Shown one piece after another: positions 3,114 to 23,659 of a stretch of DNA of 24,000 nt (positions are counted from its first letter, which is position 1; the number at the start of each line of letters is the position of its first letter). The notes beneath the pieces were generated by a model that searched no databases, was not told where the DNA came from, and was given only the letters and a program-made list of their open reading frames with translations. The position numbers and the translations under genes are program-made. This DNA comes from Actibacterium sp. MT2.3-13A (GTDB lineage: Bacteria; Pseudomonadota; Alphaproteobacteria; Rhodobacterales; Rhodobacteraceae), in NCBI RefSeq assembly GCF_018139985.1, contig NZ_JAGSOU010000003.1:198663-222662 (forward strand), written 5' to 3'.

Positions 3114-3145
3114 GCGCCCTCCCGGGGAATCGAAGCTTTCGGTTA

Positions 3146-3174: not shown

Positions 3175-3209
3175 GATGCTTGTAGAAATCTTCGGAAAGG
3201 GAGGCGGGG

Positions 3210-4423: not shown

Positions 4424-4441
4424 CCGGGCGAGGAGGACATC

Positions 4442-5752: not shown

Positions 5753-5756
5753 GCAA

Positions 5757-6353: not shown

Positions 6354-6444
6354 CCCCCTTCTTCTGGCCGCAAATGTCCCGGGGTTTGGGGCAGAGCCCC
6401 AATTGGACCCAAGGCTTGCGCCGCAGGCGCGCAATTCAACAAAA

Positions 6445-6472
6445 GGCCCCCGCCGACGCGTCGGCGGGGGCC
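6445..6472. terminator. Bidirectional intrinsic terminator between the convergent paaR and minus-strand paa operons
   Basis: Perfect 28-nt palindrome GGCCCCCGCCGACGCGTCGGCGGGGGCC, flanked by AAAA (6441-6444) on one side and TTT (6473-6475) on the other. Either strand therefore reads as a GC stem followed by a U-tract. Confidence 0.7.
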
Positions 6473-6494
6473 TTTCCAGTTCATGCAACGGGCC

Positions 6495-7256: not shown

Positions 7257-7269
7257 GGCCGTTCCTCCC

Positions 7270-8343: not shown

Positions 8344-8355
8344 CGGTTCCTCTCC

Positions 8356-8817
8356 TCAGATGCACTTGAAATAGTCGAAGGGTTCGAGACAGTCCTTGCA
8401 GCGCCATGCGGCCTTGCAGGGGGTCGAGCCGAACTGGCTGACCTTCTCGACATGTCCGCTCCCGCAGCGCGGGCAATGATCGGGGCCGCCGGCGGGCCGG
8501 GGCGGCGCGATGCCGTATGCCTCCAGCTTCCGCTTGCCCTCATCGCTCAGCCAGTCGGTGGTCCAGGCAGGCGAGAGCTGGCGTTTCAGCGCCAGCTTCT
8601 CGATGCCTTTTTCGCGCAGCGCGGTCTCGATATCGAGATTGATGATCGAGGTCGCCGGGCAGCCCGAATAGGTCGGCGTGACGGTCACGACCAGCGTGTC
8701 GCCCTGCCATTCGACATCGCGGATGATGCCCAGGTCGGTCAGCGAGATCACGGGGATCTCGGGGTCCGGGACGGCCGACAGCCAGTCCCAGACCTGTTCG
8801 GTGCTCGGATGTTGCAT
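8356..8817 (-). CDS. paaD: Phenylacetyl-CoA epoxidase subunit PaaD
   Basis: PaaD-like core DPEIPVISLTDLGIIRDV...TPTYSGCPA plus a C-terminal Cys-rich ribbon CPRCGSGHVEKVSQFGSTPCKAAWRCKDCLEPFDYFKCI. I chose the ATG at 8817 (MQHPSTEQVWDW), 5 nt after the paaC stop. The track ORF begins at 8859, which would overlap paaC by 37 nt and add an Arg-rich, unconvincing N-terminus. Confidence 0.85.
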   Translation of the reverse strand: MQHPSTEQVWDWLSAVPDPEIPVISLTDLGIIRDVEWQGDTLVVTVTPTYSGCPATSIINLDIETALREKGIEKLALKRQLSPAWTTDWLSDEGKRKLEAYGIAPPRPAGGPDHCPRCGSGHVEKVSQFGSTPCKAAWRCKDCLEPFDYFKCI

Positions 8818-8822
8818 CGCTC

Positions 8823-9587
8823 TTACCAGCTTGCGCCGGGATAGGCGCGTTGCAGCCACTGCATCTGGGTCAGCAGATGGCCCAGGTGCTCGGTATGCAT
8901 GGTGCCGGTCTTGCCGCCCTTGTGGGCGAAGGGGCTGTCGGGGATCGCCAGCGTGGCATCGCCCAGAACGCGGCCCACCAGCGCGTCGTAATCCGCGCGC
9001 AAGGACGCCGGGTCGGACGCCACGCCCGCGGCCGCCATCTCGGCATCCACGGCGTCGCCGGTGAACATTTCGCCCACATAGGGCCAGAGATACTCCAGCG
9101 CCGCCTGCATGCGGGCGTGGCTTTCCTCGGTGCCGTCGCCCAGCCCCACCACCGTGCCGGCCGAGCGTTCGAGGTGATAGCTCACCTCCTTGCTGGCCTT
9201 CTCGGCGATCTCGGCGACGCGGGGGTCGCTCGATTTCATAAGCTTGCCCAGCAGGATCGAGTGGAAGGCGTCGAACAGGAATTGCCGCATCAGGGTCCGG
9301 CCGAAGTCGCCGTTGGGCATCTCGACCAGCAGCACGTTGCGGAAATCCCAGGCGTCGCGCAGGAAGGCGAGCTTGTCGGCGTCGCGTCCCTTGCCCTCGA
9401 CCTCACCGGCAAGCCCCAGCCACAGCTGCGTCTGCCCGATCAGGTCGAGCGCGGTGTTGGCCAGCGCGATGTCCTCTTCCAGAACCGGCGCGTGCCCGCA
9501 CCATTCCGAGACGCGGTGGCCGAGGATCAGCGTGTTGTCGCCCAGCCGCAGCAGGTATTCGAAAAGAGCCTCGTCGCGGGTCATCAC
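8823..9587 (-). CDS. paaC: Phenylacetyl-CoA epoxidase structural subunit PaaC
   Basis: About 254 aa. LRLGDNTLILGHRVSEWCGHAPVLEEDIALANTALDLIGQ matches the PaaC N-terminus as I recall it. The start is either GTG at 9587 (GTGA overlap with the paaB stop) or ATG at 9584 (TGATG overlap). Confidence 0.9.
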   Translation of the reverse strand: MMTRDEALFEYLLRLGDNTLILGHRVSEWCGHAPVLEEDIALANTALDLIGQTQLWLGLAGEVEGKGRDADKLAFLRDAWDFRNVLLVEMPNGDFGRTLMRQFLFDAFHSILLGKLMKSSDPRVAEIAEKASKEVSYHLERSAGTVVGLGDGTEESHARMQAALEYLWPYVGEMFTGDAVDAEMAAAGVASDPASLRADYDALVGRVLGDATLAIPDSPFAHKGGKTGTMHTEHLGHLLTQMQWLQRAYPGASW

Positions 9588-9868
9588 ATCGCCCCCACGT
9601 CTTCGGGAATGTCGAAGAAGGTCGGGTGGCGGTAGACCTTCGACTGCGACGGCTCGTAGAGCGGGCCCTTGTCGCTGGGCGAAGAGGCGGCGATATCGGC
9701 GGCCTTCACCACCCAGATGCTCACCCCCTCGTTGCGGCGGGTGTAGACGTCGCGCGCGTTCTTGATCGCCATCTCGGCGTCGGGGGCGTGCAGGCTGCCC
9801 ACATGACGGTGGCTAAGCCCGTGCTGTCCGCGGATGAAGACTTCCCACAGGGGCCATTCGTTCTTCAT
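9584..9868 (-). CDS. paaB: Phenylacetyl-CoA epoxidase subunit PaaB
   Basis: 94 aa. MKNEWPLWEVFIRGQHGLSHRHVGSLHAPD...VYTRRNEGVSIWVV is typical PaaB. SD AAGGAGG upstream. Confidence 0.93.
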   Translation of the reverse strand: MKNEWPLWEVFIRGQHGLSHRHVGSLHAPDAEMAIKNARDVYTRRNEGVSIWVVKAADIAASSPSDKGPLYEPSQSKVYRHPTFFDIPEDVGAM

Positions 9869-9889
9869 GTCTCGTCCTCCTTGAGAAAC

Positions 9890-10879
9890 TTACTCGGCCG
9901 CGACCCGGGCGGCGCGCTTGCGCGCGTGCGCCAGCAGGCCGTCGCGCACCCATTTGCCTTCGTCCCAGGCCTTGTTGCGGGCGGCCATGCGGTCCGTGTT
10001 GCAGGGGCCGTTGCCCTTGATCACGTCGAAGAACTCCGTCCAGTCGGGCTGGGTGAAGTCGTAATGCCCGGTCTCCTCGTTCCACTTGAGGTTCTCGTCC
10101 GGGACGCTCAGCCCGAGGTATTCGGCCTGCGGCACCGTCTGGTCGACGAATTTCTGCCGCAGCTCGTCATTGGTGTTGATCTTGATCTTCCATGCCATCG
10201 ACTGGGCGGAATGGATGGAGTCCTTGTCCGAGGGGCCGAACATCATCAGCGAGGGATACCAGAAGCGGTTCAGCGCATCCTGCGCCATGCGCTTCTGCTC
10301 CGGCGTGCCCTGTGCCATCTTCATCATGATGTCGTAGCCCTGCCTCTGGTGGAAGCTCTCTTCCTTGCAGATGCGGATCATGGCGCGGGAATAGGGCCCG
10401 AAGGAGGTGCGCTGCAGCGGCACCTGGTTCATGATCGCGGCGCCGTCGACCAGCCAGCCCACCGCGCCGATATCCGCCCAGGTAAGGGTCGGGTAGTTGA
10501 AGATCGACGAATACTTCATCTTGCCCGACAGCAGATCCTCGGTCAGCTCGTCGCGCGAGACGCCCAGCGTCTCGGCCGCGCAATAGAGGTAGAGGCCGTG
10601 GCCCGCCTCGTCCTGCACCTTGGCCAGCAGGATCGCCTTGCGCTCCAGCGTCGGCGCCCGGGTGATCCAGTTGCCCTCGGGCAGCTGGCCGACGATCTCG
10701 GAATGCGCGTGCTGGCCGATCTGGCGGATCAGCGTGGCGCGGTAGTCGTCGGGCATCCAGTCCTTGGGCTCGATCTTTTCGCCCGCGTCGATGCGGTCCT
10801 GGAACCTGCGCTCCTCCTCGGTCATCTCCTCGCGGGATTTCACGCCGGTGGAGGCGGTCTTGATCATCTGTGCATACAT
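9890..10879 (-). CDS. paaA: Phenylacetyl-CoA 1,2-epoxidase catalytic (diiron) subunit PaaA
   Basis: 329 aa, near-identical over long runs to E. coli PaaA as I remember it: [75 protein letters not shown] lies 8 nt upstream, immediately after the paaJ stop. Confidence 0.95.
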
Positions 10880-10894
10880 CTCAGGGTCCTCCCG

Positions 10895-12097
10895 TCAGAT
10901 CCGTTCGAGGATAATCGCCGCGCCCTGGCCCACGCCCACGCACATGGTGCACAGCGCATAGCGCCCGCCGCTGCGCTTCAGCTGGTAGGCCGCGGTCAGC
11001 ACCAGCCGCGCGCCCGACATGCCCAGCGGGTGGCCCATGGCGATGGCGCCGCCATTGGGGTTCACATGCGCCGCGTCGTCGGGCAGCCCCAGCTCGCGCA
11101 GGGTGGCCAGGCCCTGGGACGCGAAGGCCTCGTTCAATTCTATCACATCCATCTGGTCCAGCGTGAGCCCCGCGCGCGCCAGCACCTTGCGGGTGGCGGG
11201 GACCGGGCCGATGCCCATGACGCGCGGTGGAACGCCGGCCGCGGCCATCGCCACGACGCGCGCCATCGGGGTCAGCCCGTTCCTTGCCGCCGCTGCCTCA
11301 CTCGCCAGCAGCAGCGCCGCCGCGCCGTCGTTCACGCCCGAGGCATTGCCCGCGGTCACGGACAGATCCGGCCCGTTCACGCCCTTGAGCCTGGCCAGCT
11401 GCTCCAGCGTGGTTCCGGGGCGGGGGTGCTCGTCGGTGTCGACGATGACGGGGTCGCCCTTGCGCTGGGGCACGGCGACGGGGACGATCTCTTCGCGGAA
11501 GATCCCGGCGGCCTGCGCGGCAGCCCAGCGGTCCTGGCTGCGCAGCGCGAAGGCGTCCTGATCCGCGCGCGAGATGTTATAGTCCTCGGCCACGTTGTCG
11601 GCGGTTTGCGGCATCGAATCCGTGCCATACATCGCGTCCATCTTAGGGTTGACGAAGCGCCAGCCGATTGTGGTGTCGTAGACCGCGTTCGCGCGGGTGA
11701 AGGCGCTCGTCGCCTTGGGCATGACGAAGGGCGCGCGGCTCATGCTCTCCACGCCGCCGGCGATGGCGAGGTCGTAGTCGCCCGCCCGGATGCCGCGCGC
11801 GGCCATGCCCACCGCGTCCATGCCGGAGGCGCAGAGCCGGTTGATGGTGGTGCCTGGCACCTCGACCGGGAGGCCGGCCAGCAGGGCGGCCATGCGGGCC
11901 ACGTTGCGGTTGCTTTCGCCCGCCTGGTTGGCGTCGCCCAGGATCACGTCATCGACGCTGGCCCAGTCCACCCCGGCGTTGCGTGCCTTCAGCGCGGCGA
12001 TCGGGGCGGCGGCCAGGTCGTCTGTGCGGACCGAAGACAGCGCCCCGCCATAGCGCCCGATGGGTGTACGGATTGCGTCGCAGATGAATGCGTCCAT
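10895..12097 (-). CDS. paaJ: 3-oxoadipyl-CoA / 3-oxo-5,6-dehydrosuberyl-CoA thiolase
   Basis: 400 aa thiolase. Active-site region [11 protein letters not shown], then [20 protein letters not shown] and [17 protein letters not shown] upstream. It is the first gene of the minus-strand paa unit. Confidence 0.92.
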
Positions 12098-12150: not shown

Positions 12151-12320
12151 GTGCCCCAGGGGCGATTCGGCAATCTTTAAGTTACAAAATGATCGCAGAT
12201 TGGAAAAATCTGTAACAATGCATCCGGCGCGTGCCGCGGCGTCATTGTTCTCGCCCCCGCCACATCCCGCCCGCGGATGCTATAGTGCCTGCGAACGACC
12301 CGCAGGCAGGGAGGCGGCGG

Positions 12321-12779
12321 ATGCAACTGACGGTGAACGGCGTGGCGCATGAACTGGATGTCGAGGCAGACATGCCGCTGCTGTGGGTGCTGCGCGACGA
12401 GCTGGGGATCACCGGGCCGAAATATGGCTGCGGCATTGCCCAATGCGGGGCCTGCACCGTGCATGTCGATGGTCAGGCCGTGCGCGCCTGCCAGGTGGCG
12501 GCCGGCGATGTCTGGGGCGAGATCACCACGATCGAGGGGCTGGGCACGCCGCGGTCGCTGCACACGGTGCAGGCGGCATGGATCGCGCATCAGGTGGCGC
12601 AATGCGGCTATTGCCAGTCCGGCCAGATCATGCAGGCCGCGGCCCTGCTGGCCGAAAATCCCGATCCGACCGACGCCGAGATCGACGAGGCGCTGTCCGG
12701 CAATCTCTGCCGCTGCGGCACCTATCCGCGCATCCGCGCCGCGGTGAAAACCGCCGCCGCCATGTTGCGGGAGGGCTGA
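12321..12779 (+). CDS. (2Fe-2S)-binding small subunit of an aldehyde oxidase/xanthine dehydrogenase-family molybdoenzyme (IorA-like)
   Basis: [51 protein letters not shown]..., then [10 protein letters not shown] and [10 protein letters not shown] chose the ATG at 12321 with SD GGGAGG (12309-12314). The track start at 12231 is a GTG that adds an implausible 30-aa leader. Confidence 0.88.
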
Positions 12780-12782
12780 ACC

Positions 12783-15026
12783 ATGAGCCGCATCGGACGC
12801 CCGGCCCGCCGCAGCTTCCTGATCGGTTCCGCCGCTGTCGCCGGCGGCGTGGCCTTCGGCTACTACCGCTACCGGCAGCCGCTGCCCAACCCGCTGCTGG
12901 AGGGTCTGGCCGAGGGCGAGGCGGCGCTGACGCCCTTCGTCAGGATCGACGCGCAGGGCGTGACCCTGATCACCCCGCGCGCCGACATGGGGCAGGGGGC
13001 CAGCTCCATTCAGGCCTACCTGCTGGCCGAGGGGCTGGACCTGGACCCACTGACCGTGCGCCTCGACCCCGGCGACCCAAGCCCTGCCTATTACAACGGC
13101 GCCGTGCTGGCCGAGGGGCTGCCCTTCGCGGCCACCGACACCGGCTGGCTGGCCGAAACGGCCCGGGCCGCCGCCGATGTTCCGGCGCGGCTGATGGGGA
13201 TGCAGATCACCGGCGGCTCCTCCACCGTGCCGGATATGTTCGACCGGCTGCGCCACGCCGGCGCCGTGGCCCGCGAGACGCTGAAGGAAGCCGCGGCGCA
13301 GCAGACCGGCATCGCGCGCGACCGGCTCGGCACAGATGACGGCGCGGTGATCCTGCCCGACGGTCAGAGACTGCCCTACGGCGCGCTCGCGGCCCGCGCG
13401 GCCACGCTGGAGCCCGTCACGGATGCGATCCCGCGCCCCGCAAGCGCCTGGCGCTATCTCGGGAAACGGGTGCAGCGCACCGATATCGTGGCGAAGTCCA
13501 CCGGGACCGAGACCTATGGCATCGACCTCGCGCTCGACGGCATGCTCTACGCCTCGGTCCGGACCAATCCCGGGTTGGGCGGCGCGGTCAACGGTTACGA
13601 CGCCAGCGCGGCCGAGGCGATGCGCGGGGTGCTGAAGGTCGTGCCGGTCACCGGCGGCGTGGGCGTGATCGCCGACAACACCTGGCGCGCCTTCAGGGCC
13701 GTCAACGCCATCGCGATCGACTGGGGCGCGCCGGGCTATCCGGCCAGTTCTGACCAGATCTGGCCGGCGCTCCGGGCCGCCATGACTGCCGGAAACCGCG
13801 ACAGCCGGTTCCGGGACGAGGGCGACGTGGAAAACGCGCTGTTCGAGGGCGAGGCGATCGCGGCCGAGTACCGCGTGCCCTATCTCGCCCATGCACCGCT
13901 GGAGCCGATGAACGCCACCGTCCGCGTCACCGACAGCCGCGCCGATATCTGGACCGGCACGCAGATCCCGCGCTTCGTGCAGACGCACGCGGCCCGGCTG
14001 ACCGGCCTTGATGAGGCAGCCGTGCATGTCCATGCCCTGCCCATGGGCGGCAGCTTCGGCCGGCGGCTGGAGGATGACTATGTCCTGCAGGCGGTGGAAC
14101 TGGCGATGGCGGTGAAGGGCCGGCCGGTGAAGATGACCTGGACCCGCGAAGAGGACATGACCCACGATTTCCCCCGTCCCGCGCAGATCGCCCGCGGTCG
14201 TGGCACGGTGCGCGAGGGCAGGGTCGAGGCGCTGGACCTCTCGGTCGTCGGCCAGTCGGTGAGCGCCTCGTGGCTGGGGCGGGTGATGGTGGCCCCGCCG
14301 GGTCCCGACACGACGATCGTGGCCGGCGCCTGGGATCAGCCCTTCGCCATCCCGCATTACCGCGTCACAGGCTACCGCGCGCCGGAAATGGTGCCGGTCA
14401 GCTCATGGCGCTCGGTTGGGGCCTCTGCCAACGGCTTCTTCCACGACTGTTTCCTCGATGAGCTGATCCATGCCGCCGGCGCCGACCCGCTGGAGGAGCG
14501 TCTGCGGCTGTGCGCCGACCCGCTGTCGCGCAAGGTGCTGGAGGCGGCGGCCGAGATGTCGGGCTGGAGCGGACCGCGGATCAGTGAGACCCGCGCGCGC
14601 GGTGTGGCCTTCTGCCTGTCCTTCGGCGTGCCGATGGCGGAGGTGGTGGAGATCAGCCGGACCGAGGCCGGCATCAGGATCGACAAGGTCTACGCCGCCT
14701 GCGAGATCGGCCGCGTCCTCGACCCCGACAATTTCGAGGCGCAGGTCGCGGGCGGGATCCTCTTCGGCCTCGGCCACGCGATGAATTGCGAGCTGAGCTA
14801 TGCGGATCACGCCCCCGAGCAGGCGAATTTCGACAGCTATCCGGGGATGCGCCTGTCGCAGGCGCCGCAGATCGAGGTGCGCGGGCTGGAAAACGGCGAC
14901 CGCATCCGCGGCATCGGCGAGCCGGGCGTGCCGCCCGCGGCGCCGGCGCTGGCCAACGCGATCTTCGCGCTCACCGGGCAGCGCATCCGCGAATTGCCGC
15001 TGAACCGGCATGTGACCTTCGCCTGA
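12783..15026 (+). CDS. Molybdopterin-binding large subunit (IorB-like) with a twin-arginine signal peptide
   Basis: 747 aa. The N-terminus MSRIGRPARRSFLIGSAAVAGGVAFG is a Tat-type RRxFL motif plus a hydrophobic region. The body has the look of the xanthine dehydrogenase/aldehyde oxidase molybdopterin-binding family (GGSFGRR, EPGVPPAAPALANAIF). It starts 3 nt after the small-subunit stop. Confidence 0.9.
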   Translation: MSRIGRPARRSFLIGSAAVAGGVAFGYYRYRQPLPNPLLEGLAEGEAALTPFVRIDAQGVTLITPRADMGQGASSIQAYLLAEGLDLDPLTVRLDPGDPSPAYYNGAVLAEGLPFAATDTGWLAETARAAADVPARLMGMQITGGSSTVPDMFDRLRHAGAVARETLKEAAAQQTGIARDRLGTDDGAVILPDGQRLPYGALAARAATLEPVTDAIPRPASAWRYLGKRVQRTDIVAKSTGTETYGIDLALDGMLYASVRTNPGLGGAVNGYDASAAEAMRGVLKVVPVTGGVGVIADNTWRAFRAVNAIAIDWGAPGYPASSDQIWPALRAAMTAGNRDSRFRDEGDVENALFEGEAIAAEYRVPYLAHAPLEPMNATVRVTDSRADIWTGTQIPRFVQTHAARLTGLDEAAVHVHALPMGGSFGRRLEDDYVLQAVELAMAVKGRPVKMTWTREEDMTHDFPRPAQIARGRGTVREGRVEALDLSVVGQSVSASWLGRVMVAPPGPDTTIVAGAWDQPFAIPHYRVTGYRAPEMVPVSSWRSVGASANGFFHDCFLDELIHAAGADPLEERLRLCADPLSRKVLEAAAEMSGWSGPRISETRARGVAFCLSFGVPMAEVVEISRTEAGIRIDKVYAACEIGRVLDPDNFEAQVAGGILFGLGHAMNCELSYADHAPEQANFDSYPGMRLSQAPQIEVRGLENGDRIRGIGEPGVPPAAPALANAIFALTGQRIRELPLNRHVTFA

Positions 15027-15044
15027 GCGACACATATCTGTCGC
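15027..15044 (+). terminator. Weak stem-loop immediately after the IorB-like stop
   Basis: GCGACA-CATATC-TGTCGC, a 6-bp stem with no clear T-tract. Confidence 0.25.
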
Positions 15045-15075
15045 CCGGTTCCGTCCTGTCTGACTGGAGAGAAAT

Positions 15076-15150
15076 TGGAGCGGGCGATGAGATTCGAACT
15101 CACGACCCTTACCTTGGCAAGGTAATGCTCTACCCCTGAGCTACGCCCGC
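15076..15150 (-). tRNA. tRNA-Gly (anticodon GCC), CCA encoded
   Basis: The reverse complement is GCGGGCGTAGCTCAGGGGTAGAGCATTACCTTGCCAAGGTAAGGGTCGTGAGTTCGAATCTCATCGCCCGCTCCA. It folds as a 75-nt cloverleaf: 7-bp acceptor stem, D arm GCTC/GAGC, anticodon arm TTACC-TTGCCAA-GGTAA, and T arm GTGAG-TTCGAAT-CTCAT. Confidence 0.93.
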
Positions 15151-15580: not shown

Positions 15581-17431
15581 TCAGACACGGTCGAGCTGGG
15601 TTCGACGCGGCGTCAGGGTGGCGGCGCGCCCATGCGTATCCTCGCGCGGCCCTTGCGGCGGCGTCCCGAACAGCAGGGCGCGGGCACGGTCCTGGACGGC
15701 CACGAAATGGCCTTCCGCCACCTCGACCATCTCCGCGCGGGCCGGCGCCTGCCTGGCGCGCAGAAGCAGCCTGGGTGGTTGCGGGGCGGCAAGGCTCGGG
15801 CGCCGATCGTCGCGTCGGGACGGATCCGGCACCGGGACGGCCGACAGCAGGCGCTGCGTGTAGGGATGCTGCGGGTTGTGCAGGACTGCCTCGGTGGGGC
15901 CGGTCTCGACGATCTGGCCGGCCCACATGACGGCGACCCGGTGGCTGACCCGCTCGACCACCGCGATGTCGTGAGAGATGAACAGGAACGACACCCCTTC
16001 CTCGTCCTGCAGCCGCGCCATCAGGTCGGTGACCTGGCGCGCGACCGAGACGTCCAGCGCCGACACCGCCTCGTCGGCGACGATCAGGGCGGGCCGCACC
16101 GACAGGGCGCGGGCGATGCACAGCCGCTGGCGCTGCCCGCCCGAGAACTGGTGCGCGAAGCGGTCGGCGGCCTCGGACTCCAGCCCGACCTTTTCCAGCA
16201 ACTCCCCGGCCAGCGCGCGCCGGTCGCGGCGGGACAGGCGGTGATGGATATGGGCCGGCTCGGTGATCAGATCGCGCACCGGAAGGCGCGGGTTGAGGCT
16301 GGCGAAGGGGTCCTGGAAAACCATCTGGGCGCGCTGGCGCAACGGCCGCATTTCGGAGGCGTCTAGGTGGGTGATGTCCTGCCCCTTCAGGCGCAGGCGG
16401 CCTTCGCTGGGTTCGACGAGGCGAAGCACGGCGCGGGCCAGGGTGGATTTGCCACAGCCGGATTCGCCCACAAGTCCCAGCGTCTCGCCCGGGGCGATCG
16501 ACAGCGAAACACCGTTGACCGCGTGGTAATCGAGATGCCCGCCCGGCAGCAGGCCGCGCCGGATCGGAAAGCGTACGGCCAGGTTCTCGACCGTCAGCAC
16601 CGGCGCGGCGGGACGGCGCAGCGGTTTCGGCGCGCCGCTGCCCAGTTTCGGCGTCGCGGCCATCAGCTGCCGGGTGTAGGCCGCGCGGGGGCGGGCGAAC
16701 AGGTCTTCGACCGGCCCCTCTTCGGCTTTTTCCCCCTGTTTCAGCACCACGACCCGGTCGGCGATCTTGGCCACCACGCCCATGTCGTGGGTGATGAACA
16801 GAACGGCCATGCCGATCTCGTCCTGCAGCTGCCGGATCAGCGCCAGGATTTCGGCCTGGGTGGTCACGTCCAGCGCGGTCGTCGGCTCGTCCGCGATCAG
16901 CAGATCGGGCCGGCAGGCCAGCGCCATGGCGATCATCACCCGCTGGCGCAACCCGCCCGAGAGCTCATGCGGGAACTGGTCGAGACGGCGCTCGGCCTCG
17001 GGGATCTTCACCCGCTCGAATGCCTCGCGGGCGGCGGCGCGGGCGGCGGCGGCGTCCAGGCGCTGATGCAGGCGCAGCACCTCGGCCACCTGCTCGCCCA
17101 GCGGCATCACCGGGTTGAGCGCCGTCATCGGCTCCTGAAACACCATCGAGACGCGGTTGCCGCGCACCTGCTGCATCTGCCGGTCGCTCAGCGCCGACAG
17201 CTCCAGCGCGGGGGCGCCATGCAGCGTGATGGTGCCGCCGGCGATGCGCCCGCCCTCGCGCTCGATGAGGCGCAGGAGCGCCAGCGCGGTGGCCGATTTG
17301 CCGGACCCGGATTCGCCGACCAGCGCCACCGTCTCCCCCTTCGCGATGTCGAAGGAAAGGCCCCTGACGGCCTGGTGTGATCCGAAGCTCAGGTGCAGGT
17401 TCTCGACGCTCAGAAGGGGGGTGCGGGGCAT
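15581..17431 (-). CDS. Fused double ATP-binding protein of an Opp/Dpp-type ABC importer (DppD-DppF fusion)
   Basis: 616 aa with two complete ATPase cassettes. The first has [16 protein letters not shown] and [12 protein letters not shown]. The second has [16 protein letters not shown] and [12 protein letters not shown]. The ATG lies 3 nt after the metallophosphoesterase stop (TGAGCCATG). Confidence 0.9.
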
Positions 17432-17434
17432 GGC

Positions 17435-18307
17435 TCAGCTCTCGGCTTTGATGTGGCGGGCGCGCAGCTCGGGATGGGCGCGGAAATCGGGCAGGACCGG
17501 GGTCCAGCGCCGGGCGGTGGGGGTGATCTCGGCGCGGTAGGGATCGCGGCCCGCGACCTCCCAGCGCACGGTCTCTCCCAGTTCGATCACGCCCATGGCG
17601 CCGGCGGGGGCGCCTTCGGTGGTGAAGCTTTCGGTCAGAGACTGCTGGGTCAGGTGGGGGATGCCGTCAACGGTGGTGACGGTGTTCCAGTGGACGTGGC
17701 CGGCCAGGCAGACCACAGGCACCCTGGCCTGCGCCAGTGCGGCGCGGGCGCGTTCGGCCATCGGGTAGGTCGCGTTGGACGGGTTGTTCTGGAAATAGTA
17801 GTTGCCGACCTGCGAATGGCCCGAGACCGGCACATGGCTGACCACCAGAAGCGGCCGGTCGGCGGCCTGCACGGTGCGCGACAGCCACAGCAGGTCGGCC
17901 TCGCGCAGCACGAAACCCGAGCGTTCGGCCGTGCGCCGGATGCGGGTGTCGGCGCGCCACAGCACGATGCGCCAGCCGCCGAGGTCATGGGTCTCGTGGC
18001 CCAGAGACTGGCCGAGGATCTGTTCGTTCTCCTCGACGCTGAGGAAATCGCGGTCGTGGTTGCCGTTCAGGTGCCAGATCGGTTTTTCGACCGCGCGGAA
18101 GGCCTCGGCGACCTCGGCCTCCAGCCGCAGGTCGGTGTCGTGGTCTACGTCCGAGATCCGGTCGCCCAGGTCCAGCACATGGCTGACATCGGCGTCGCGG
18201 ACATAGCGGGTGAAGTCCTCCATCAGTCCCATGGCGGCGTCCCCGCGCTTGGTGGCGGAGGGGATGCCGTGGTGGATATCGGCGACGATGGCTAGGCGAA
18301 CGGTCAT
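17435..18307 (-). CDS. Calcineurin-like metallophosphoesterase, cytoplasmic (no signal peptide)
   Basis: 290 aa with all five canonical blocks: IVADIHHG (DxH), DLGDRISD (GDxxD), NGNHD (GNHD/E), VSHVP (H), AGHVHWN (GHxH). It is embedded between the SBP and ATPase genes. Confidence 0.88.
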   Translation of the reverse strand: MTVRLAIVADIHHGIPSATKRGDAAMGLMEDFTRYVRDADVSHVLDLGDRISDVDHDTDLRLEAEVAEAFRAVEKPIWHLNGNHDRDFLSVEENEQILGQSLGHETHDLGGWRIVLWRADTRIRRTAERSGFVLREADLLWLSRTVQAADRPLLVVSHVPVSGHSQVGNYYFQNNPSNATYPMAERARAALAQARVPVVCLAGHVHWNTVTTVDGIPHLTQQSLTESFTTEGAPAGAMGVIELGETVRWEVAGRDPYRAEITPTARRWTPVLPDFRAHPELRARHIKAES

Positions 18308-18342
18308 GGCGGGGGCTTTCCTGAATGGAGGGGAGGGGGGGA

Positions 18343-18365
18343 CCCGCCGCCGGCAGGGCGGCGGG
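18343..18365 (-). terminator. Intra-operon GC stem-loop just downstream of the SBP gene (attenuator or mRNA-stabilising hairpin rather than a full terminator)
   Basis: CCCGCCGCC-GGCAG-GGCGGCGGG, a perfect 9-bp stem located 12 nt after the SBP stop on the minus strand. It is followed by a C-rich tract, not a U-tract. Confidence 0.4.
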
Positions 18366-18376
18366 CCTGTTGGAGC

Positions 18377-19930
18377 TCAGTTCGACGCGAATGAGATCGA
18401 GCCGGCGCGGAAGTCGAGCACATAGGGGATGTGGCCCGGCTTCGGCGCCCAGCTCACGTCCTTGCGCATGGCCCAGCTTTCAAACGGGCGGTAGAGCGGC
18501 AGCACCGGCGGGTCCTGCCTGATGCGCTCCATCAGCTCTGCATAGGCGGCCTTGCGGGCCTCGACGTCCTTCGAGAAGCGGAAGCGTTCCCAGATCTCGG
18601 CGTATTGCGCATCGGTGTTGAAGCGGCCTTCGCCCTCGGAGGGGCCGTTGGGCGCCCACATCACGCCGAAGGAGCCGAACGGGTCGGCGAAATACATCGG
18701 GTTCGACCAGTTGCGGGTCATCATCTCGGGCGAGCGGCCCGACCATTTCTCGGCGATGTTGACGCGGCCCTTGACGCCGACCTCGGCCCACATCTCGGTG
18801 ATGGCCTGCGCGGCCAGCAGACCGTTGGTATAGTAGGTCGGGTGGGTGTCGAAGGTGACCTCGAACCCGTCATAGCCGGCCTCTTTCAGCAGCTGCCTGG
18901 CCTTTTCGGGGTTGTATTCGAAGGTCTTGAGTTCCGGCATGTAGAGGTCGCCGTATTCCTCGAGCGTGTGGGTCGAGGGGACGACCGCCTTGCCCAGCCA
19001 CAGCGCCTCGTTCAGCGTGTCGCGGTCGATGGCGAGGCTCAGCGCCTGGCGGATGCGCGGATCCTTCAGCTTGGGGTGGTTCACGTTCATGATCATGACG
19101 TGGAACAGCGGCGTGGCGCTACCCACGGTGCGGAGGTTCTTGTCGGCCTCGATCAGCGCCAGCTGGTCGGGCGCGATGTTGGTGACGATGTCGGCCTCGC
19201 CGGTCTTCAGCGCGGTCACCCGCGATGCGGTTTCGGGGATGTGCTGAACGGTCGCCTTGGCCAGCGGCGCCTTTTCGCCCCAGAAATCGTCGAAGCGTTC
19301 ATAGACCACGCGCTCGCCCGGCACGAACTCGGCGATGCGGTAGGGGCCGGTCCCCACGGGTGCCAGCGAGAAGGCCTCGAAATCGTCATGCTCGGCCACC
19401 TCGGGATCGCCGGTCAGGGCCTTGGTGTAATCCTCCGGGATGATCATGACCTGCTGCAGGTTCAGCAGGGTCTCCCACAGCGGTTCTTCCTTCTCGACGG
19501 TGACGCGCACGGTCAGGTCATCGACCTTCTCGGCCTTGAGGAAGTTCGACAGCCGATCGCGCGAGCGCACCACATAGGGCGGGAAATCGGCCTGATACAT
19601 GCGGTTGAGCGAGAACACCACGTCGTCGGCGGTCATCGCCTCGCCGTTGTGGAAGGTCACGCCGTCGCGCAGCGTCAGCTCCATGACCTTGGGTTCGACC
19701 AGTTTCCATTCGGTTGCCAGCGCCGGAACCCACTCGGCCTCCAGCTTGTCGTGGTTCTTGCCGATCAGGGTGTCGAAGGCGTTGTAGTAGAATTGCGAGC
19801 CGACGTTGGAATGGTCGCGGCCGGGGTCGAGGTAGCTCGACACGTTGGCGGCGCCGACAGTGATCTCCTGGGCGCAGGCGCCCGAGGCAAGCCCGGCGGC
19901 GAGGGCGGTGGAAAGCAGCAGTTTCAGCAT
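18377..19930 (-). CDS. ABC transporter substrate-binding protein, family 5 (Opp/Dpp/Nik/opine type)
   Basis: 517 aa. Signal peptide MLKLLLSTALAAGLASGACAQ. The body is family-5 in character (VPALATEWK, LRDGVTFHNGE, DDVVFS, GTGPYRI). SD GGAGAA upstream. Confidence 0.92.
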   Translation of the reverse strand: MLKLLLSTALAAGLASGACAQEITVGAANVSSYLDPGRDHSNVGSQFYYNAFDTLIGKNHDKLEAEWVPALATEWKLVEPKVMELTLRDGVTFHNGEAMTADDVVFSLNRMYQADFPPYVVRSRDRLSNFLKAEKVDDLTVRVTVEKEEPLWETLLNLQQVMIIPEDYTKALTGDPEVAEHDDFEAFSLAPVGTGPYRIAEFVPGERVVYERFDDFWGEKAPLAKATVQHIPETASRVTALKTGEADIVTNIAPDQLALIEADKNLRTVGSATPLFHVMIMNVNHPKLKDPRIRQALSLAIDRDTLNEALWLGKAVVPSTHTLEEYGDLYMPELKTFEYNPEKARQLLKEAGYDGFEVTFDTHPTYYTNGLLAAQAITEMWAEVGVKGRVNIAEKWSGRSPEMMTRNWSNPMYFADPFGSFGVMWAPNGPSEGEGRFNTDAQYAEIWERFRFSKDVEARKAAYAELMERIRQDPPVLPLYRPFESWAMRKDVSWAPKPGHIPYVLDFRAGSISFASN

Positions 19931-20004
19931 GTCTTTTCTCCGTGAGGAATGGGTGGACGTTTGAACGGGGCGGGCGTTTCAGCCTCTGTTGTTGGTGTTC
20001 GGGG

Positions 20005-20892
20005 TCATCGCGCGCGCAGCCGCACATCGGCGCCGTCGCGCAGCCAGTCGCCGAGGATCTGCACGGCGAAGGTGACCAGCAGGATCATCATTGCCGGGGC
20101 CGCCACGATCCAGGGGGCGGTCGGCATGTAATCGCGGCCGATGCCGACCATCGACCCCAGCGTCGCGGTGGGCGGCTGCACGCCGAGGCCGAGGAAGGAG
20201 AGCGTGCTTTCCAGCAGCACGATGTTCGACAGCGCCAGCGTGAACTGCACCACCAGCGGCGAGACGATGTTGGGCAGAAGGTGGCGGTGCGCGATGCGCA
20301 GCGGGGCGGCGCCGGCGGCGCGGGCGGCCTCGATGAAGGGCAGCTTCATCAGCCGGCGCACCTCGCCGCGGACGATGCGGGCATATTGCTCCCACCCGGC
20401 CAGGCCCAGAACCAGCACGATCACCTCGATCGAACTGCCGAGGATCGCCAGCAGGAACAGCGCGACCAGGGTGAAGGGCACCGCGATCTGGGTGTCGACC
20501 GCGGCCATGATGCTGGCCTCGGTCCGGCCGCCGACGATCCCGGCCAGCAGGCCCAGCGTGCCGCCGATCAGCAGACCCAGCGTCGCGCCCAGTCCGGCCA
20601 GCATCAGCGTCAGGCGCAGACCGAACAGGCTGCGCGAGAACACGTCGCGGCCCAGCTCGTCGGTGCCCAGCAGGTGCCCGGCCTTCGCCCGCTCGAAGCC
20701 CAGCGGCGGGCGCAGCCGCGCGATCAGGCTTTGCGAATTGGGATCGAACGGGGCGACGATCGGCGCCAGCACGGCCAGCAGGACCAGGCTCAGCCCGATC
20801 ACGATCGCGGCTTTCTGGATGGCATCGGCGCTGCGCCACAGCTGCAGGGCGGCGGCGGGGGCAGAGGGGGCGGGGACGGCGGGGTTCATCAT
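20005..20892 (-). CDS. ABC transporter permease (DppC/OppC-like)
   Basis: 295 aa, multi-pass hydrophobic. N-terminal DppC-type segment IVAPFDPNSQSL and EAA-loop region FIEAARAAGAAPLRIAHRHLLPNI. It starts 6 nt after the upstream permease stop. Confidence 0.9.
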   Translation of the reverse strand: MMNPAVPAPSAPAAALQLWRSADAIQKAAIVIGLSLVLLAVLAPIVAPFDPNSQSLIARLRPPLGFERAKAGHLLGTDELGRDVFSRSLFGLRLTLMLAGLGATLGLLIGGTLGLLAGIVGGRTEASIMAAVDTQIAVPFTLVALFLLAILGSSIEVIVLVLGLAGWEQYARIVRGEVRRLMKLPFIEAARAAGAAPLRIAHRHLLPNIVSPLVVQFTLALSNIVLLESTLSFLGLGVQPPTATLGSMVGIGRDYMPTAPWIVAAPAMMILLVTFAVQILGDWLRDGADVRLRAR

Positions 20893-20898
20893 GGGAGA

Positions 20899-21828
20899 TC
20901 AGCCTTTCACGGTATGGCGCAGGCGCGGATCGGCCCAGGCATAGGCAAGATCGACGGCGGCATTGATCACGATCACGGCCAGCGCGACGGTCAGCACGCC
21001 GAACTGCAGCACAGGGTAGTCGCGGCGCAGCGCCGAACTGACCAGCAGGTCGCCGATCCCCGGCCAGGCGAAGATCGCCTCGATCACGACCGAGCCCGAT
21101 GCCGCCAGCCCCGCCACCTGCAACCCGATGACCGACAGGATGGTGATGCCGGCGTTGCGCAGCCCGTGCCGCAAGATCACGGCGTTCTCGGGCAGGCCCT
21201 TGGCGCGCGCCGTGCGCATGAAATCCTGTCCCAGCACGTCCAGCATGGCGTTGCGGGTGAAGCGGGTCAGCGCCGCGATCAGCACGCCCGCCAGCGCGAC
21301 GGTCGGCATGATGAAATGCAAAGCCGTGCCGTTGCCGACCACCGGCAGCCAGTTGAGCCAGTAGGAGAAGAGGAGCACCATCACGATGGCGAGGACGAAA
21401 TTCGGCACCGCGTAGCCGAGGAAGGCCACGACCATCACCGCGCTGCCGATCCAGCTCTTGCGCCAGATGGCCGCCGCGATGCCCAGCGGGATCGACACCA
21501 GAACGGTCAGGCCCACCGCGGACAGCAGCAGTTGCGTCGAGGGCCAGATGCGCTCCAGCACCATTTCAGACACCGGCCGCCTTTCGATGAAGGACAGGCC
21601 GAACTGGCCATCGGTGAAGGCCCGCAGGAAGGCGAGGTACTGGGACCAGATCGGCCGGTCCAGTTCGTAGTATTTGATGAGCAGATCGCGATCCTCGGTG
21701 GTCATCCCCTCGCCGATCACGAAGTCCACCGCGTTGCCCGACAGGCGGGTTGCGAAGAACACGATGGTCACGATCACGAAGAAGGTCAGGACCATGCGGA
21801 TCAGGGTTCGCAGGGCGTAGCTCAACAT
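20899..21828 (-). CDS. ABC transporter permease (DppB/OppB-like)
   Basis: I chose the ATG at 21828 (MLSYALRTLIRMVLTFFVIVTIVFFATRL...), giving 310 aa. EAA loop: FMRTARAKGLPENAVILRHGLRNA. The track ORF start at 22065 adds 79 Arg/Gly-rich residues that overlap the HAD gene out of frame. Confidence 0.9.
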   Translation of the reverse strand: MLSYALRTLIRMVLTFFVIVTIVFFATRLSGNAVDFVIGEGMTTEDRDLLIKYYELDRPIWSQYLAFLRAFTDGQFGLSFIERRPVSEMVLERIWPSTQLLLSAVGLTVLVSIPLGIAAAIWRKSWIGSAVMVVAFLGYAVPNFVLAIVMVLLFSYWLNWLPVVGNGTALHFIMPTVALAGVLIAALTRFTRNAMLDVLGQDFMRTARAKGLPENAVILRHGLRNAGITILSVIGLQVAGLAASGSVVIEAIFAWPGIGDLLVSSALRRDYPVLQFGVLTVALAVIVINAAVDLAYAWADPRLRHTVKG

Positions 21829-22592
21829 GTGCAGGCTCCGGTCTTGGCTGGAAGGGAGGGCTCTTCGCCCGGGCGCGTCAGACGTATGAACTCGACCCCG
21901 ACCGCCGCGGCGGCCGCGCCGTCGGTTTCGGCGGTGTCGCCGATGAAGACGGCCGCCCCGGCGGTGACGCCGGCGCGGCGCAGCGCCTCGCGCGGCAGAT
22001 CGGGGGCCGGCTTGCCCAGGCTGGGCGCCCGGACCTGCGGCACCACCGCGGCCACCGCCGCCCACAGCGCCCCGGTCTCGGGCTGCGGCGTGCCGTCGGC
22101 GCCCGGATGGCTGGTATCGGGATTGGTCAGGGTGACGGGCACGCCGGCATGGGCGAAGGCGGCGATGCGGGCGATGTCGGAAAAGCTCAGCGAGGGGTCG
22201 CGCGCCAGCACCACCGCCTCGGGCCGCGCGCGGTCGGGGCGCAGACCCAGCGCGCGCGAGAGATCCTGAAGCGGCTCGGCCGCATAGAGCGCGACCCGCG
22301 CCCCGGGGCGTGCCGCCTGCAGCGCGCGCAGCGTCATCTCGCCGGCCAGCAGGATCCGTTCGGGCGGCAGGGCCAGGCCCAGGGCCGCCAGCCGGGCCGA
22401 CAGGCTCTGCGCGGTGTCAGAGGAATTGTTGGACACGATCCAAAGCCGCTCGCCGCAACGCGCGAAAAGCTCGGGCACGTCCGGCAGCACCGTTTCCCCG
22501 GAGATGAGACAGCCGTCCAGATCGGCCAGTATGGCGGCCCGGTCCGGCCAGGGACCGTCGAGGAAACGCTGCAATCGGACCGGTTGGTGCAT
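21822..22592 (-). CDS. HAD-superfamily hydrolase, subfamily IIA (NagD/sugar- or nucleotide-phosphatase-like)
   Basis: I chose the ATG at 22592 (MHQPVRLQRF...) with SD GGAGAG 8 nt upstream, giving 257 aa. HAD motifs: I ADLDGCL, II IVSNNSS, III SLGKPAP, IV FIGDTAETDG. The stop overlaps the permease start by 7 nt (ATGTTGA). Confidence 0.8.
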   Translation of the reverse strand: MHQPVRLQRFLDGPWPDRAAILADLDGCLISGETVLPDVPELFARCGERLWIVSNNSSDTAQSLSARLAALGLALPPERILLAGEMTLRALQAARPGARVALYAAEPLQDLSRALGLRPDRARPEAVVLARDPSLSFSDIARIAAFAHAGVPVTLTNPDTSHPGADGTPQPETGALWAAVAAVVPQVRAPSLGKPAPDLPREALRRAGVTAGAAVFIGDTAETDGAAAAAVGVEFIRLTRPGEEPSLPAKTGACTC

Positions 22593-22702
22593 GCCAATAA
22601 CTCTCCGTTCGGGGAAACGCCCCGTCTGCGCCTTGCCGGCGCTGTCTTCGATGGTCTCTGGGTCGGCGCTGTGCCGGCTGTGAGAAGAGATATGGCGCCC
22701 GA

Positions 22703-22722
22703 CTGTAACCGTACCGTTACAG
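22703..22722. promoter_or_regulatory. LysR-box-like palindrome in the divergent HAD-operon / LysR intergenic region
   Basis: CTGTAAC-CGTACC-GTTACAG has 7-bp perfect arms and a 6-nt spacer. By my count it is T-N12-A rather than the canonical T-N11-A. It ends 10 nt before the LysR ATG. Confidence 0.45.
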
Positions 22723-22732
22723 GTGAAAGCAT

Positions 22733-23659
22733 ATGTTCCGGGGCATGAAGTCATCGGTTTCAGAATCGGCCACGGGCCTCTCGCTTTCGCGTTTGCGCGC
22801 GCTGACGGCGGTCGCCGAGGAAGGATCGTATTCCGCTGCGGCCCGTCGAATCGGGATTTCGCACACTGCGGTGGCCCAGCAGATCCGCGATCTGGAGCGG
22901 ATCCACGACATCCACCTGTTCGATCGCCTGCGCGGGGTGCTGCGCCCCACGCCCGCCTGCCTGGAACTGTGCGACATCGGCAACCGCATGCAGCAGGCCG
23001 CGCGCGACGCCGCGCGCGTGCTGGCGCGTCGCGGTCCGTCGGGCAAGCACCGGCTGCGGGTCGGTCTGGGGAACTCGATGCCGGGGATCGCCATCGTCGG
23101 ACATGTGCTGAAACTGCACCCGACGCTGACGGTGTCGGTCGAAAGTGGCTCGCATCAGGACATCATGGCGGCGGTGTCCCGGCGCGAGGTCGATGTCGCC
23201 GTCCTGCCCGACCTGCCCGCCGACCCGCGCTTTCGGCGCGCGCCCGTCCTGTCGCAAGAGGTGGTCGCGATCGTCTCGCCCGAAAGCCCGATGGCGGAAT
23301 GCAGCGACGTGACGCTGGAGCATCTGGCGCAGAACCCGCTGGTGTTCCGCTCCCCTGGGTCGTCGACCCAGAAGATCGTGGACCGCGGCTTCCGCCAGGC
23401 GGGCCTCGAGCCCGAGCCGCGGCTGACAGCGGATACCCGGGACGCCGTCTATGAGGCGGTCGCTCTCGGAATCGGGGTCGGGTTCATGTGGCGCTTCGGA
23501 ACCTACCGTTCGGATATCGTGCGCCGTGTGCCGGTCCCGGAATTTCGTTCGACCGTGGACGAGGTGGTGTTCGCCCTTGCCGATGAACGGAACCCGCTCG
23601 TCGATCTGTTCTTCAACGTTGCCGGGCAGTTCCGGCCGGAGGCGATGATGCGGGGTTGA
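22733..23659 (+). CDS. LysR-family transcriptional regulator, divergent from the importer/phosphohydrolase operon
   Basis: 308 aa. N-terminal wHTH LSRLRALTAVAEEGSYSAAARRIGISHTAVAQQIRDLERIHDIHLFDR, followed by an LTTR-like periplasmic-binding-protein-type effector domain. Alternative start at M5 (22745). Confidence 0.9.
   Translation: MFRGMKSSVSESATGLSLSRLRALTAVAEEGSYSAAARRIGISHTAVAQQIRDLERIHDIHLFDRLRGVLRPTPACLELCDIGNRMQQAARDAARVLARRGPSGKHRLRVGLGNSMPGIAIVGHVLKLHPTLTVSVESGSHQDIMAAVSRREVDVAVLPDLPADPRFRRAPVLSQEVVAIVSPESPMAECSDVTLEHLAQNPLVFRSPGSSTQKIVDRGFRQAGLEPEPRLTADTRDAVYEAVALGIGVGFMWRFGTYRSDIVRRVPVPEFRSTVDEVVFALADERNPLVDLFFNVAGQFRPEAMMRG

Follow-up and report, generated by a model that had tools for sequence, protein, structure and literature searches.

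A LysR-linked operon of marine bacteria combines an AccA-family importer with two cytoplasmic phosphohydrolases: a candidate module for phosphodiester uptake and degradation

The window considered here is a stretch of 24,000 nucleotides from the genome of Actibacterium sp. MT2.3-13A (contig NZ_JAGSOU010000003.1, positions 198,663 to 222,662), which contains a seven-gene unit that is kept almost unchanged across many marine bacteria. It consists of an operon for a HAD-IIA phosphatase, two permeases, a substrate-binding protein (SBP), a calcineurin-like metallophosphoesterase (MPE) and a fused double ATPase of the ATP-binding cassette (ABC) type, together with a divergent gene for a LysR regulator (Table 1). 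The initial annotation of this DNA, made from the sequence alone, had described six packed minus-strand genes in this order with three characteristic junctions. Both parts of that description were borne out: open reading frames were present at the coordinates given and their Pfam and NCBIfam families agreed with the proposed functions, the 7-nt overlap between the HAD and permease 1 genes (ATGTTGA) and the 3-nt gap between the MPE and ATPase genes could be read directly in the sequence, and the 6-nt gap between the two permease genes follows from their coordinates.

Table 1. Features of the operon and of its borders in the window
Feature	Position	Strand	Remarks
tRNA-Gly(GCC)	15076-15150		bounds the operon on the downstream side
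Fused double ABC ATPase	15581-17431	-	two ABC_tran + oligo_HPY (Pfam); last gene of the operon
MPE (calcineurin-like metallophosphoesterase)	17435-18307	-	Pfam Metallophos, E 1.3e-9
SBP, AccA-family, periplasmic	18377-19930	-	Pfam SBP_bac_5, E 5.6e-80
Permease 2 (DppC/AccE-like)	20005-20892	-	BPD_transp_1 + OppC_N
Permease 1 (DppB/AccD-like)	20899-21828	-	BPD_transp_1; true ATG start gives MLSYAL
HAD-IIA phosphatase	21822-22592	-	first gene of the operon; Pfam Hydrolase_6, Hydrolase, Hydrolase_like; best NCBIfam TIGR01460
Divergent promoter/leader region, LysR-HAD	22593-22732	.	140 nt intergenic
Dyad TGTAAC-N6-GTTACA	22704-22721	.	12 nt upstream of the LysR ATG; probable LysR recognition site
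LysR regulator, divergent	22733-23659	+	HTH_1 + LysR_substrate domains

According to Pfam, the parts of an Opp/Dpp-type (PepT) importer are complete, with an SBP_bac_5 protein, two BPD_transp_1 permeases and ATPase domains carrying oligo_HPY. No NCBIfam equivalog (Dpp, Opp, Nik, Gsi or Cnt) reached its cutoff with the SBP or the permeases. The fused ATPase has the architecture of GsiA and YejF, which are also its best NCBIfam matches; it passed the cutoffs of the single-domain models for the dipeptide subfamily, NikD/NikE and CntD/CntF, which assigns no substrate because both halves of the fused protein score. Permease 1 and permease 2 are each 42% identical to their counterparts of plasmid pAtK84b, AccD and AccE, respectively. 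A typical signal peptide (MLKLLLSTALAAGLASGACAQ) was recognized by eye in the translation of the SBP. Public annotation of the locus is generic, the SBP being named an 'ABC transporter substrate-binding protein' (a 'peptide/nickel' binder) and the MPE a 'metallophosphoesterase'.

The relationship of the SBP is much more specific than this annotation. When it was compared with all PDB sequences by phmmer, the best seven matches were all AccA, the binding protein of the Agrobacterium acc operon, from C58, Bo542 and S4 (E 1e-78 to 3e-73), with alignment over the full length at about 34% identity and 268 bits. The best match other than AccA was a haem/dipeptide binder (HbpA/DppA) with an E-value of 2.6e-34, and peptide, nickel or haem binders scored at most 122 bits. 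Foldseek searches with the AlphaFold model of the SBP (mean predicted local distance difference test score, pLDDT, of 76) gave the same picture, in that ranks 1 to 11 were occupied by AccA structures (E about 1e-42; template modelling (TM) score 0.80-0.90), with DppA next at 2.8e-36. The SBP is a true AccA-family homologue, so the link to the acc operon goes beyond analogy, and it does not nest among the characterized peptide binders, its nearest solved relatives by both sequence and predicted fold being AccA proteins.

In AccA, the phosphate is coordinated by N54, S419, Y375 and Y376 and the bound ligand is a pyranose-2-phosphate, whose sugar OH1 is anchored by N54, S419, N284 and E510, while the site is lined by Y145, W178, W423, T430 and E434 (PMC4526662). 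An alignment of AccA with 120 orthologues of the window SBP was used to compare the two pockets. The check for a phosphate-coordinating pocket that the initial annotation had suggested came out in its favour, since N42, S409, Y366 and Y367 of the window SBP correspond to N54, S419, Y375 and Y376 of AccA (hereafter NSYY) and are invariant in all 120 orthologues. The residues around it are equally fixed (120/120) and different: the sugar-recognizing residues Y145, W178, N284, W423 and E434 of AccA are replaced by R126, Q159, L275, Y413 and M424, and I52 and G421 by H40 and P411, while S420, at the position of AccA T430, is kept in 115 of the orthologues. The pyranose-2-phosphate template of AccA is thus absent, its E510 lying outside the aligned fragment. 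Among 138 representatives of 50%-identity clusters, the NSYY set was present in 47, mostly of the closest clusters, and the R-Q-L-Y-M pocket was seen in no other cluster. The SBP may therefore be read as a phosphate-ester binder with a new and tightly fixed specificity. Because the residues of AccA that recognize the sugar are replaced, agrocinopines are unlikely to be its ligands. The newly gained Arg126 and His40 suggest an additional anionic or strongly polar group on the ligand, and the loss of both gate tryptophans of AccA argues against a sugar or choline head group.

Both hydrolases appear to be equipped for catalysis in the cytoplasm, as had been proposed from their motifs and N-termini. 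The MPE contains all motifs of its superfamily (DxH, GD, GNH(D/E), H and GHxH), with D10, H12, D49, N83-H84, H158, H204 and H206 invariant in 39 homologues and D85 following N83-H84. In the HAD-IIA protein, motifs I-IV (DxD with D24 and D26, S54-N55, K194 and D219/D224) are conserved in at least 95% of 70 orthologues. Neither protein has a recognizable signal peptide when its translation is judged by eye: the first metal motif of the MPE begins at residue 10, and the N-terminus of the HAD-IIA protein is not hydrophobic.

The AlphaFold2 model of the MPE (pLDDT 89.7) matched metallophosphoesterases with the alpha/beta sandwich fold in Foldseek, the nearest folds being the cyclic-nucleotide phosphodiesterase Rv0805 (E 2e-12), the zebrafish dimetal phosphatase 2nxf, Lmo2642, purple acid phosphatases and the glycerophosphodiesterase GpdQ. 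The highest TM-score (0.69) belonged to 2nxf, which we take to be a pyrophosphatase related to ADPRibase-Mn. A phmmer search of the PDB with the MPE gave no match with an E-value below 0.08, and its sole NCBIfam match of note was the model of the 2',3'-cyclic nucleoside monophosphate (cNMP) phosphodiesterase SpdA, at 28.5 bits for a cutoff of 400. All of these nearest folds are only 13-18% identical to the MPE; the class III or GpdQ-type enzymes Rv0805, GpdQ and Lmo2642 share with it the fold and the complete dinuclear metal site. The MPE clade is found almost only after this SBP. It is a separate, so far uncharacterized clade that is essentially dedicated to the transporter with this SBP. The HAD-IIA protein scored 77.1 bits with TIGR01460 (HAD-SF-IIA; cutoff 100.15) and above the cutoffs of Pfam Hydrolase_6 and Hydrolase_like, and its PDB relatives are small-molecule phosphomonoesterases, including the p-nitrophenyl phosphatase Pho2, the glycerol-3-phosphate phosphatase Rv1692, pyridoxal phosphate (PLP) phosphatase and NagD. 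The simplest way to account for two unlike cytoplasmic phosphohydrolases in a single transporter operon is a diesterase followed by a monoesterase, which also fits the AccF/AccG pair of the acc operon; the MPE would then be a phosphodiesterase and the HAD-IIA protein a phosphomonoesterase.

The association of these genes was examined in species-representative genomes, where 133 relatives were returned and the best 80 loci were analyzed (numbered with the prefix L). All seven genes were present in the order and orientation of the window in 67 of the 80 loci; of the 13 exceptions, 7 are truncated where a contig ends. A core of five genes (permease, permease, SBP, MPE and ATPase) was observed in 72 loci, 68 of which also contain the HAD-IIA gene, and a LysR gene adjoins the operon in divergent orientation in 69 of the 80. 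A reciprocal search starting from the MPE was carried out on metagenome loci, hundreds of metagenome contigs carrying the operon: an SBP orthologue lies directly upstream of the MPE gene in 64 of 70 testable loci, and a fused ATPase gene directly downstream in 53 of 76. The co-occurrence of SBP, MPE and HAD-IIA genes in a fixed order, for which the initial annotation had proposed a neighbourhood search, therefore holds across Rhodobacterales, Stappiaceae, Phyllobacteriaceae/Rhizobiaceae and Halomonas, and the gene arrangement is far beyond chance. In at least 133 species genomes, the SBP is 66-94% identical with an invariant pocket. The carriers include Roseobacteraceae, Paracoccaceae, Stappiaceae (Roseibium, Stappia), Mesorhizobium, Hoeflea, Oricola and Aquamicrobium among the alphaproteobacteria and Halomonas and Billgrantia among the gammaproteobacteria, with plasmid copies in Octadecabacter, Halomonas, Chelatococcus and Ciceribacter. 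When conserved flanking genes were sought by clustering the open reading frames of the 80 loci, only generic ABC components recurred; as no flanking gene is conserved, the module appears to be self-contained and mobile.

Several variants of the module were observed. In Thermohalobaculum and one metagenome-assembled genome (L048:145-7882 and L038:2904-3611), an S-adenosylmethionine (SAM)-dependent methyltransferase gene takes the place of the HAD and LysR genes. The L048 operon has directly upstream of it genes for a PhoD phosphatase, an enzyme of PF01663 and a further transporter of the Opp type, an arrangement that resembles a small island for scavenging organophosphates. A sub-variant from metagenomes (SBP about 60% and MPE 59-65% identical) keeps the permease-permease-SBP-MPE order and has no fused ATPase gene after the MPE gene (L124-L128, L136, L137, L139, L142, L145, L146, L156, L159 and L160). 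The operon of Sediminimonas qiaohouensis (L008:9766-11935) is decayed, with an intact SBP gene (91% identical), the MPE gene in out-of-frame fragments, the LysR gene reduced to a fragment and the permease genes missing. That of Actibacterium naphthalenivorans (L006) is a mosaic: identity to the window proteins reaches 88% for the SBP and 68-74% for the MPE, permeases and ATPase, and there is no HAD gene. This mosaic and the plasmid-borne copies (L083 and hits H2-H4) suggest horizontal exchange and recombination within the module.

An exception to the unconserved flanks is a second complete AccA-type ABC system, which was found within about 1.4 kb in 7 of the 80 loci (L006, L027, L039, L047, L053, L065 and L069). 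Its SBP keeps the NSYY residues in all seven; it is 47-51% identical to the pAtK84b AccA1-type protein in six of them, and that of L047 is nearer to the second pAtK84b AccA (39%). In L053 (14968-21297) and L069 (14376-20867), the two that were looked at in detail, two ATPase genes, permease genes and a gene for a xylose-isomerase-like TIM-barrel protein lie after the SBP gene. The presence of two AccA-family systems side by side may suggest that their substrates are related.

The regulator and the intergenic region were also analyzed. The best NCBIfam match of the LysR protein is TIGR03339, a family of LysR regulators of aminoethylphosphonate catabolism (162.8 bits; cutoff 341.1), followed by CbbR at 96.5 bits. 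It is thus related to regulators sensing small organophosphorus compounds without belonging to TIGR03339 itself; no phn genes were found in the window or in the 80 loci. The dyad TGTNAC-N6-GTNACA was detected in all of 70 LysR-HAD intergenic regions with its core within one mismatch, and in nearly all of these its position hardly varies; the core GTNAC-N6-GTNAC is exact in 50 of the 70, compared with 0.5% (exact) and 7% (one mismatch) in shuffles. In the window itself the dyad is a unique match, with none expected in shuffles. A PhoB box (CTGTCAT-N4-CTGTCAT) was considered as well: 35 of the 70 regions contain it within 4 mismatches versus about 6 expected, and this enrichment is the dyad itself, which is better read as a LysR site because it is an inverted repeat adjoining the LysR gene. 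The dyad is thus probably the recognition site of LysR, and LysR is predicted to activate the operon. The interval 22593-22732 contains no recognizable sigma-70 consensus, and consensus scans for promoters and terminators gave nothing useful. No Rfam family of riboswitch or leader RNA matched the same interval, and the leader as a whole does not fold significantly (z-score -1.8). Just upstream of the ribosome-binding site of the HAD gene lies a short GC hairpin (CGGGG-N3-6-CCCCG; 22606-22620, minus strand), which is kept at the same position in the closest relatives (L001-L007), also with no match in Rfam.

The acc operon is the nearest characterized system, and its logic resembles that of the window operon in the succession of import, cytoplasmic diesterase, monoesterase and dedicated regulator (PMC4526662). 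The initial annotation had likened the two as the same logic built from unrelated parts and had called the locus a non-orthologous variant. This stands for the two enzymes, whose folds are unrelated, and for the regulator, and it falls for the SBP, which is homologous to AccA and has identical phosphate ligands. The diesterase is a metallophosphoesterase in the window, whereas AccF of the acc operon is a glycerophosphodiester phosphodiesterase (GDPD) of the UgpQ-like type, for which no gene exists in the window operon; the phosphatase is a HAD-IIA protein, whereas AccG is similar to inositol monophosphatase (IMPase). Control differs as well, with a divergent LysR on one side and the repressor AccR, a regulator of the DeoR type, on the other. 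The ATPases, unlike those of acc, are fused into one protein, and the gene order is not the same. The window locus lies on the chromosome, or occasionally on a plasmid, of marine and saline bacteria, whereas acc resides on Ti or opine-catabolic plasmids. The locus does not belong to acc proper, as it differs in each of five features tested: sugar template, GDPD, IMPase, AccR and plasmid context. For acc itself, the pair of GDPD and IMPase enzymes has been described, and the effector of AccR is the product of the diesterase and not the imported diester (PMC4526662); a passage in PMC4086400, citing Kim et al. 2008, states that the operon is induced by phosphate limitation.

A second, acc-like operon is located on pAtK84b and pAt12D1. 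It encodes an AccA-type SBP, two ATPases, a GDPD whose gene lies between the ATPase and permease genes, two permeases and a divergent histidine phosphatase, and thus shares with the window operon an AccA-family SBP with NSYY, an interleaved esterase gene and a separate phosphatase. In the permeases and ATPase domains it shares 42-49% identity with the window operon, a level that is common among Opp/Dpp systems. The interleaving of enzyme genes among transporter genes, which had been called atypical, is real in the window and has this precedent. The two systems differ in the folds of their enzymes (GDPD and histidine phosphatase), in the regulator, which is a sugar-binding SorC/SmoC-like protein, and in the SBP pocket, where the plasmid protein keeps the sugar-type Y145, W178 and N284 and the window protein does not.

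Two further systems can be compared with the operon. The Ugp/GlpQ/UgpQ system of E. coli and rhizobia imports phosphodiesters through an ABC transporter, cleaves them with the cytoplasmic diesterase UgpQ and serves phosphorus acquisition; its binding protein UgpB belongs to SBP family 1 and has no relation to AccA, its diesterase is a GDPD, control is by PhoB and no dedicated phosphatase gene is present. The xanthosan system of Xanthomonas (XanT and XanP), a parallel in logic only, also combines dedicated uptake with a phosphodiesterase for a specialized sugar phosphodiester, and has no component homologous to the window operon, XanT being an outer-membrane TonB-dependent protein and XanP a 2H-fold enzyme; its substrate is known and is produced in the host plant by a bacterial effector (PMC12807533). 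Literature searches aimed at the window operon or at AccA-like systems outside Agrobacterium found no paper, which agrees with the earlier remark that the operon is apparently uncharacterized, and a search for later structural papers on AccA added nothing further.

A wider group of AccA-like operons became visible in the same analysis. The SBPs examined all carry the NSYY set, in full or in part, and most are accompanied by a phosphoesterase gene that is embedded in the operon or adjoins it. On plasmids of Roseibium, Rhizobium gallicum and Mesorhizobium (L089, L090 and L091), NSYY SBP operons contain an alkaline-phosphatase-family gene and adjoin genes for PhnF, the carbon-phosphorus lyase (phnGHIJ), phosphoenolpyruvate mutase (aepX), a cytidylyltransferase and an aminotransferase; these systems may be importers of phosphonate esters. 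Two metagenome SBP clades that are 36-38% identical to the window SBP (L093:8001-15925 and L095:8001-15854) occur in operons with a PF01663 phosphodiesterase and a Meth_synt_2 protein (similar to the C-terminal part of MetE). In another clade, 44% identical (L085:2072-2512), a paralogous SBP gene precedes the SBP gene and a PHP-domain gene, not an MPE gene, follows it. Finally, two more NSYY SBP operons (L082:7905-11158 and L095:136-6803) end in genes for an MPE and a GntR/UTRA regulator. The MPEs beside these other SBPs (Pseudoroseomonas and a TARA contig) were considered as orthologues of the window MPE and rejected, as the hhalign probability was only 30-41%; they appear to be independent recruitments with a relation at the superfamily level only.

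That the esterase has been exchanged repeatedly while the phosphate-binding SBP is conserved provides strong evidence, from gene context, that the cargo of these transporters is esters requiring cleavage in the cytoplasm. As a tentative generalization, which is rather doubtful at present, AccA-like SBPs with NSYY might form a broad, unrecognized class that imports intact organophosphate diesters, each with its own cytoplasmic esterase, the window clade being the marine version. Such a class would draw its esterases from at least five unrelated folds (GDPD, AP/NPP, MPE, PHP and, by analogy, 2H-like).

For the window operon itself, it is very probable that the transporter carries some organophosphate ester. 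Somewhat more cautiously, the locus is probably a self-contained, LysR-controlled uptake and degradation module of the AccA family for a phosphodiester other than agrocinopine, on which the MPE and then the HAD-IIA enzyme would act; the class of substrate, which enzyme acts first and what induces the operon are inferred. In the proposed mechanism, the periplasmic SBP would grip the phosphate of the ester with the same Asn/Ser/Tyr/Tyr set as AccA and would read the attached group through the clade-invariant pocket of His40, Arg126, Gln159, Leu275, Tyr413 and Met424. The two permeases and the fused ATPase would then bring the compound in intact, the MPE would hydrolyse the diester to give an alcohol and a phosphomonoester, and the HAD-IIA enzyme would take the phosphate off the monoester to release phosphate and a second carbon skeleton. 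LysR would bind the TGTNAC-N6-GTNACA dyad and, by analogy with AccR, would be activated probably by the imported compound or by the monoester product.

Several observations weigh against this interpretation. The ligand loops of the SBP are modelled at low confidence (pLDDT below 50 at 41-44 and 411-435), so the comparison of the pockets rests on an alignment at about 34% identity. The diester nature of the substrate is not proven by the SBP alone, because AccA also takes phosphomonoesters, namely arabinose-2-phosphate and glucose-2-phosphate (PMC4526662). The closest outgroup SBP (P0241, 55% identical) occurs without an MPE. The low identity of the MPE to its nearest solved folds and the presence among them of monoesterases (purple acid phosphatases) and of the dimetal phosphatase 2nxf count in the same direction: the modelled fold supports a phosphoesterase with a dinuclear metal site, which could be a diesterase, a pyrophosphatase or a monoesterase. 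The HAD gene is absent from 4-5 core loci (L006, L069, L038, L048 and L074), so that the second step may be dispensable or supplied from elsewhere in the genome. In addition, no biochemical or genetic data on members of the operon were found in the literature.

The first of the alternatives, which is rather unlikely, takes up the question of monoesters and assumes a phosphomonoester or a bisphosphorylated compound as substrate, from which the MPE and the HAD-IIA enzyme, both monoesterases, would remove one phosphate each. The binding of arabinose- and glucose-2-phosphate by AccA and the purple acid phosphatases among the structural neighbours of the MPE agree with it, and the gained Arg126 and His40 could hold a second anionic group. 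However, a single phosphate would not call for two monoesterases, the top structural neighbours of the MPE are diesterases, and most other AccA-like operons examined have recognized diesterase families (GDPD, PF01663 and AP-type).

It is also unlikely that the substrate is derived from nucleotides, such as a 2',3'- or 3',5'-cNMP, a short oligonucleotide or an alcohol or sugar bound to a nucleoside diphosphate (NDP-alcohol or NDP-sugar). The MPE would then open the diester or pyrophosphate in the manner of class III or ADPRibase-Mn-type enzymes, and the HAD-IIA protein would be a NagD-type nucleotidase. This possibility derives from the best structural matches of the MPE (Rv0805 by E-value and 2nxf by TM-score), its SpdA match, which lies far under the cutoff, the occurrence of NagD and PRK10444 among the relatives of the HAD-IIA protein, and the transport of the nucleotide antibiotic agrocin 84 by AccA (PMC4526662). 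These enzyme likenesses are nevertheless at the superfamily level only (13-18% identity for the MPE), the HAD-IIA protein matches sugar-, glycerol- and PLP-phosphatases equally, and no gene for nucleoside salvage or catabolism is linked in the 80 loci.

An imported phosphonate ester, for example with a 2-aminoethylphosphonate head group, is quite improbable. It would turn the MPE into a phosphonate-monoester hydrolase and would leave the released phosphonate to separate catabolic genes, in keeping with the affinity of the LysR protein to TIGR03339 (162.8 bits versus 96.5 for the next family) and with the phn-associated plasmid operons with related NSYY SBPs. That LysR score is far under the cutoff of 341 bits, no phn gene is linked in the 80 loci, and hydrolysis of a phosphonate ester yields no phosphomonoester, which would leave the HAD-IIA enzyme, conserved in 68 of 72 core loci, without a role. 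An ordinary Opp/Dpp transporter for peptides, nickel or opines with unrelated passenger hydrolases, as the generic peptide/nickel families in Pfam and NCBIfam and the public label of the SBP might suggest, is highly improbable in view of equivalog scores far under the cutoffs for the SBP and permeases, an SBP much nearer to AccA than to any peptide or nickel binder, and hydrolase genes that are translationally coupled and syntenic across classes of Proteobacteria.

The remainder of the window bears no relation to the phosphoester operon. Positions 1065-12097 contain a phenylacetate catabolism cluster with PaaA/C-family subunits, PaaD, a PaaE-type reductase, a PaaK-like ligase, a thiolase, enoyl-CoA hydratases and a fused hydratase/3-hydroxyacyl-CoA dehydrogenase. 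Positions 12231-15150 hold two genes for a [2Fe-2S] and molybdopterin-binding oxidoreductase (aldehyde oxidase/IorAB-like), followed by the tRNA-Gly(GCC) gene.

Phosphodiesters make up a considerable share of the dissolved organic phosphorus in the sea and are poorly understood there, and the bacterial routes known for their use involve mainly periplasmic or extracellular enzymes (PhoD, PhoX, PafA and GlpQ) or the Ugp system. The general mechanism of importing an intact diester is already known from Agrobacterium; the present variant, with other enzymes and another pocket, is widespread and tightly conserved, and this level of conservation points to one specific, ecologically common substrate, so far unnamed. 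As many of the carriers are associated with algae, it may be a compound of the phycosphere. If the class reading is true, the marine clade would target one phosphodiester from algae or other hosts as an 'opine-like' phycosphere nutrient, and roseobacters, Stappiaceae and Halomonas would gain phosphorus and carbon by a route of their own, circumventing extracellular phosphatases. Identification of the substrate would bring a further pathway into the marine cycles of phosphorus and carbon and would extend the idea of dedicated sugar-phosphodiester nutrients, as represented by agrocinopines and xanthosan, beyond plant pathogens. The NSYY set and the surrounding pocket residues would then provide a sequence signature by which many 'peptide/nickel' SBPs could be re-annotated, and the transporter could serve as an entry gate for Trojan-horse antibiotics, as is the case with agrocin 84. 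The question of which phosphodiesters marine bacteria take up intact is thereby made testable.

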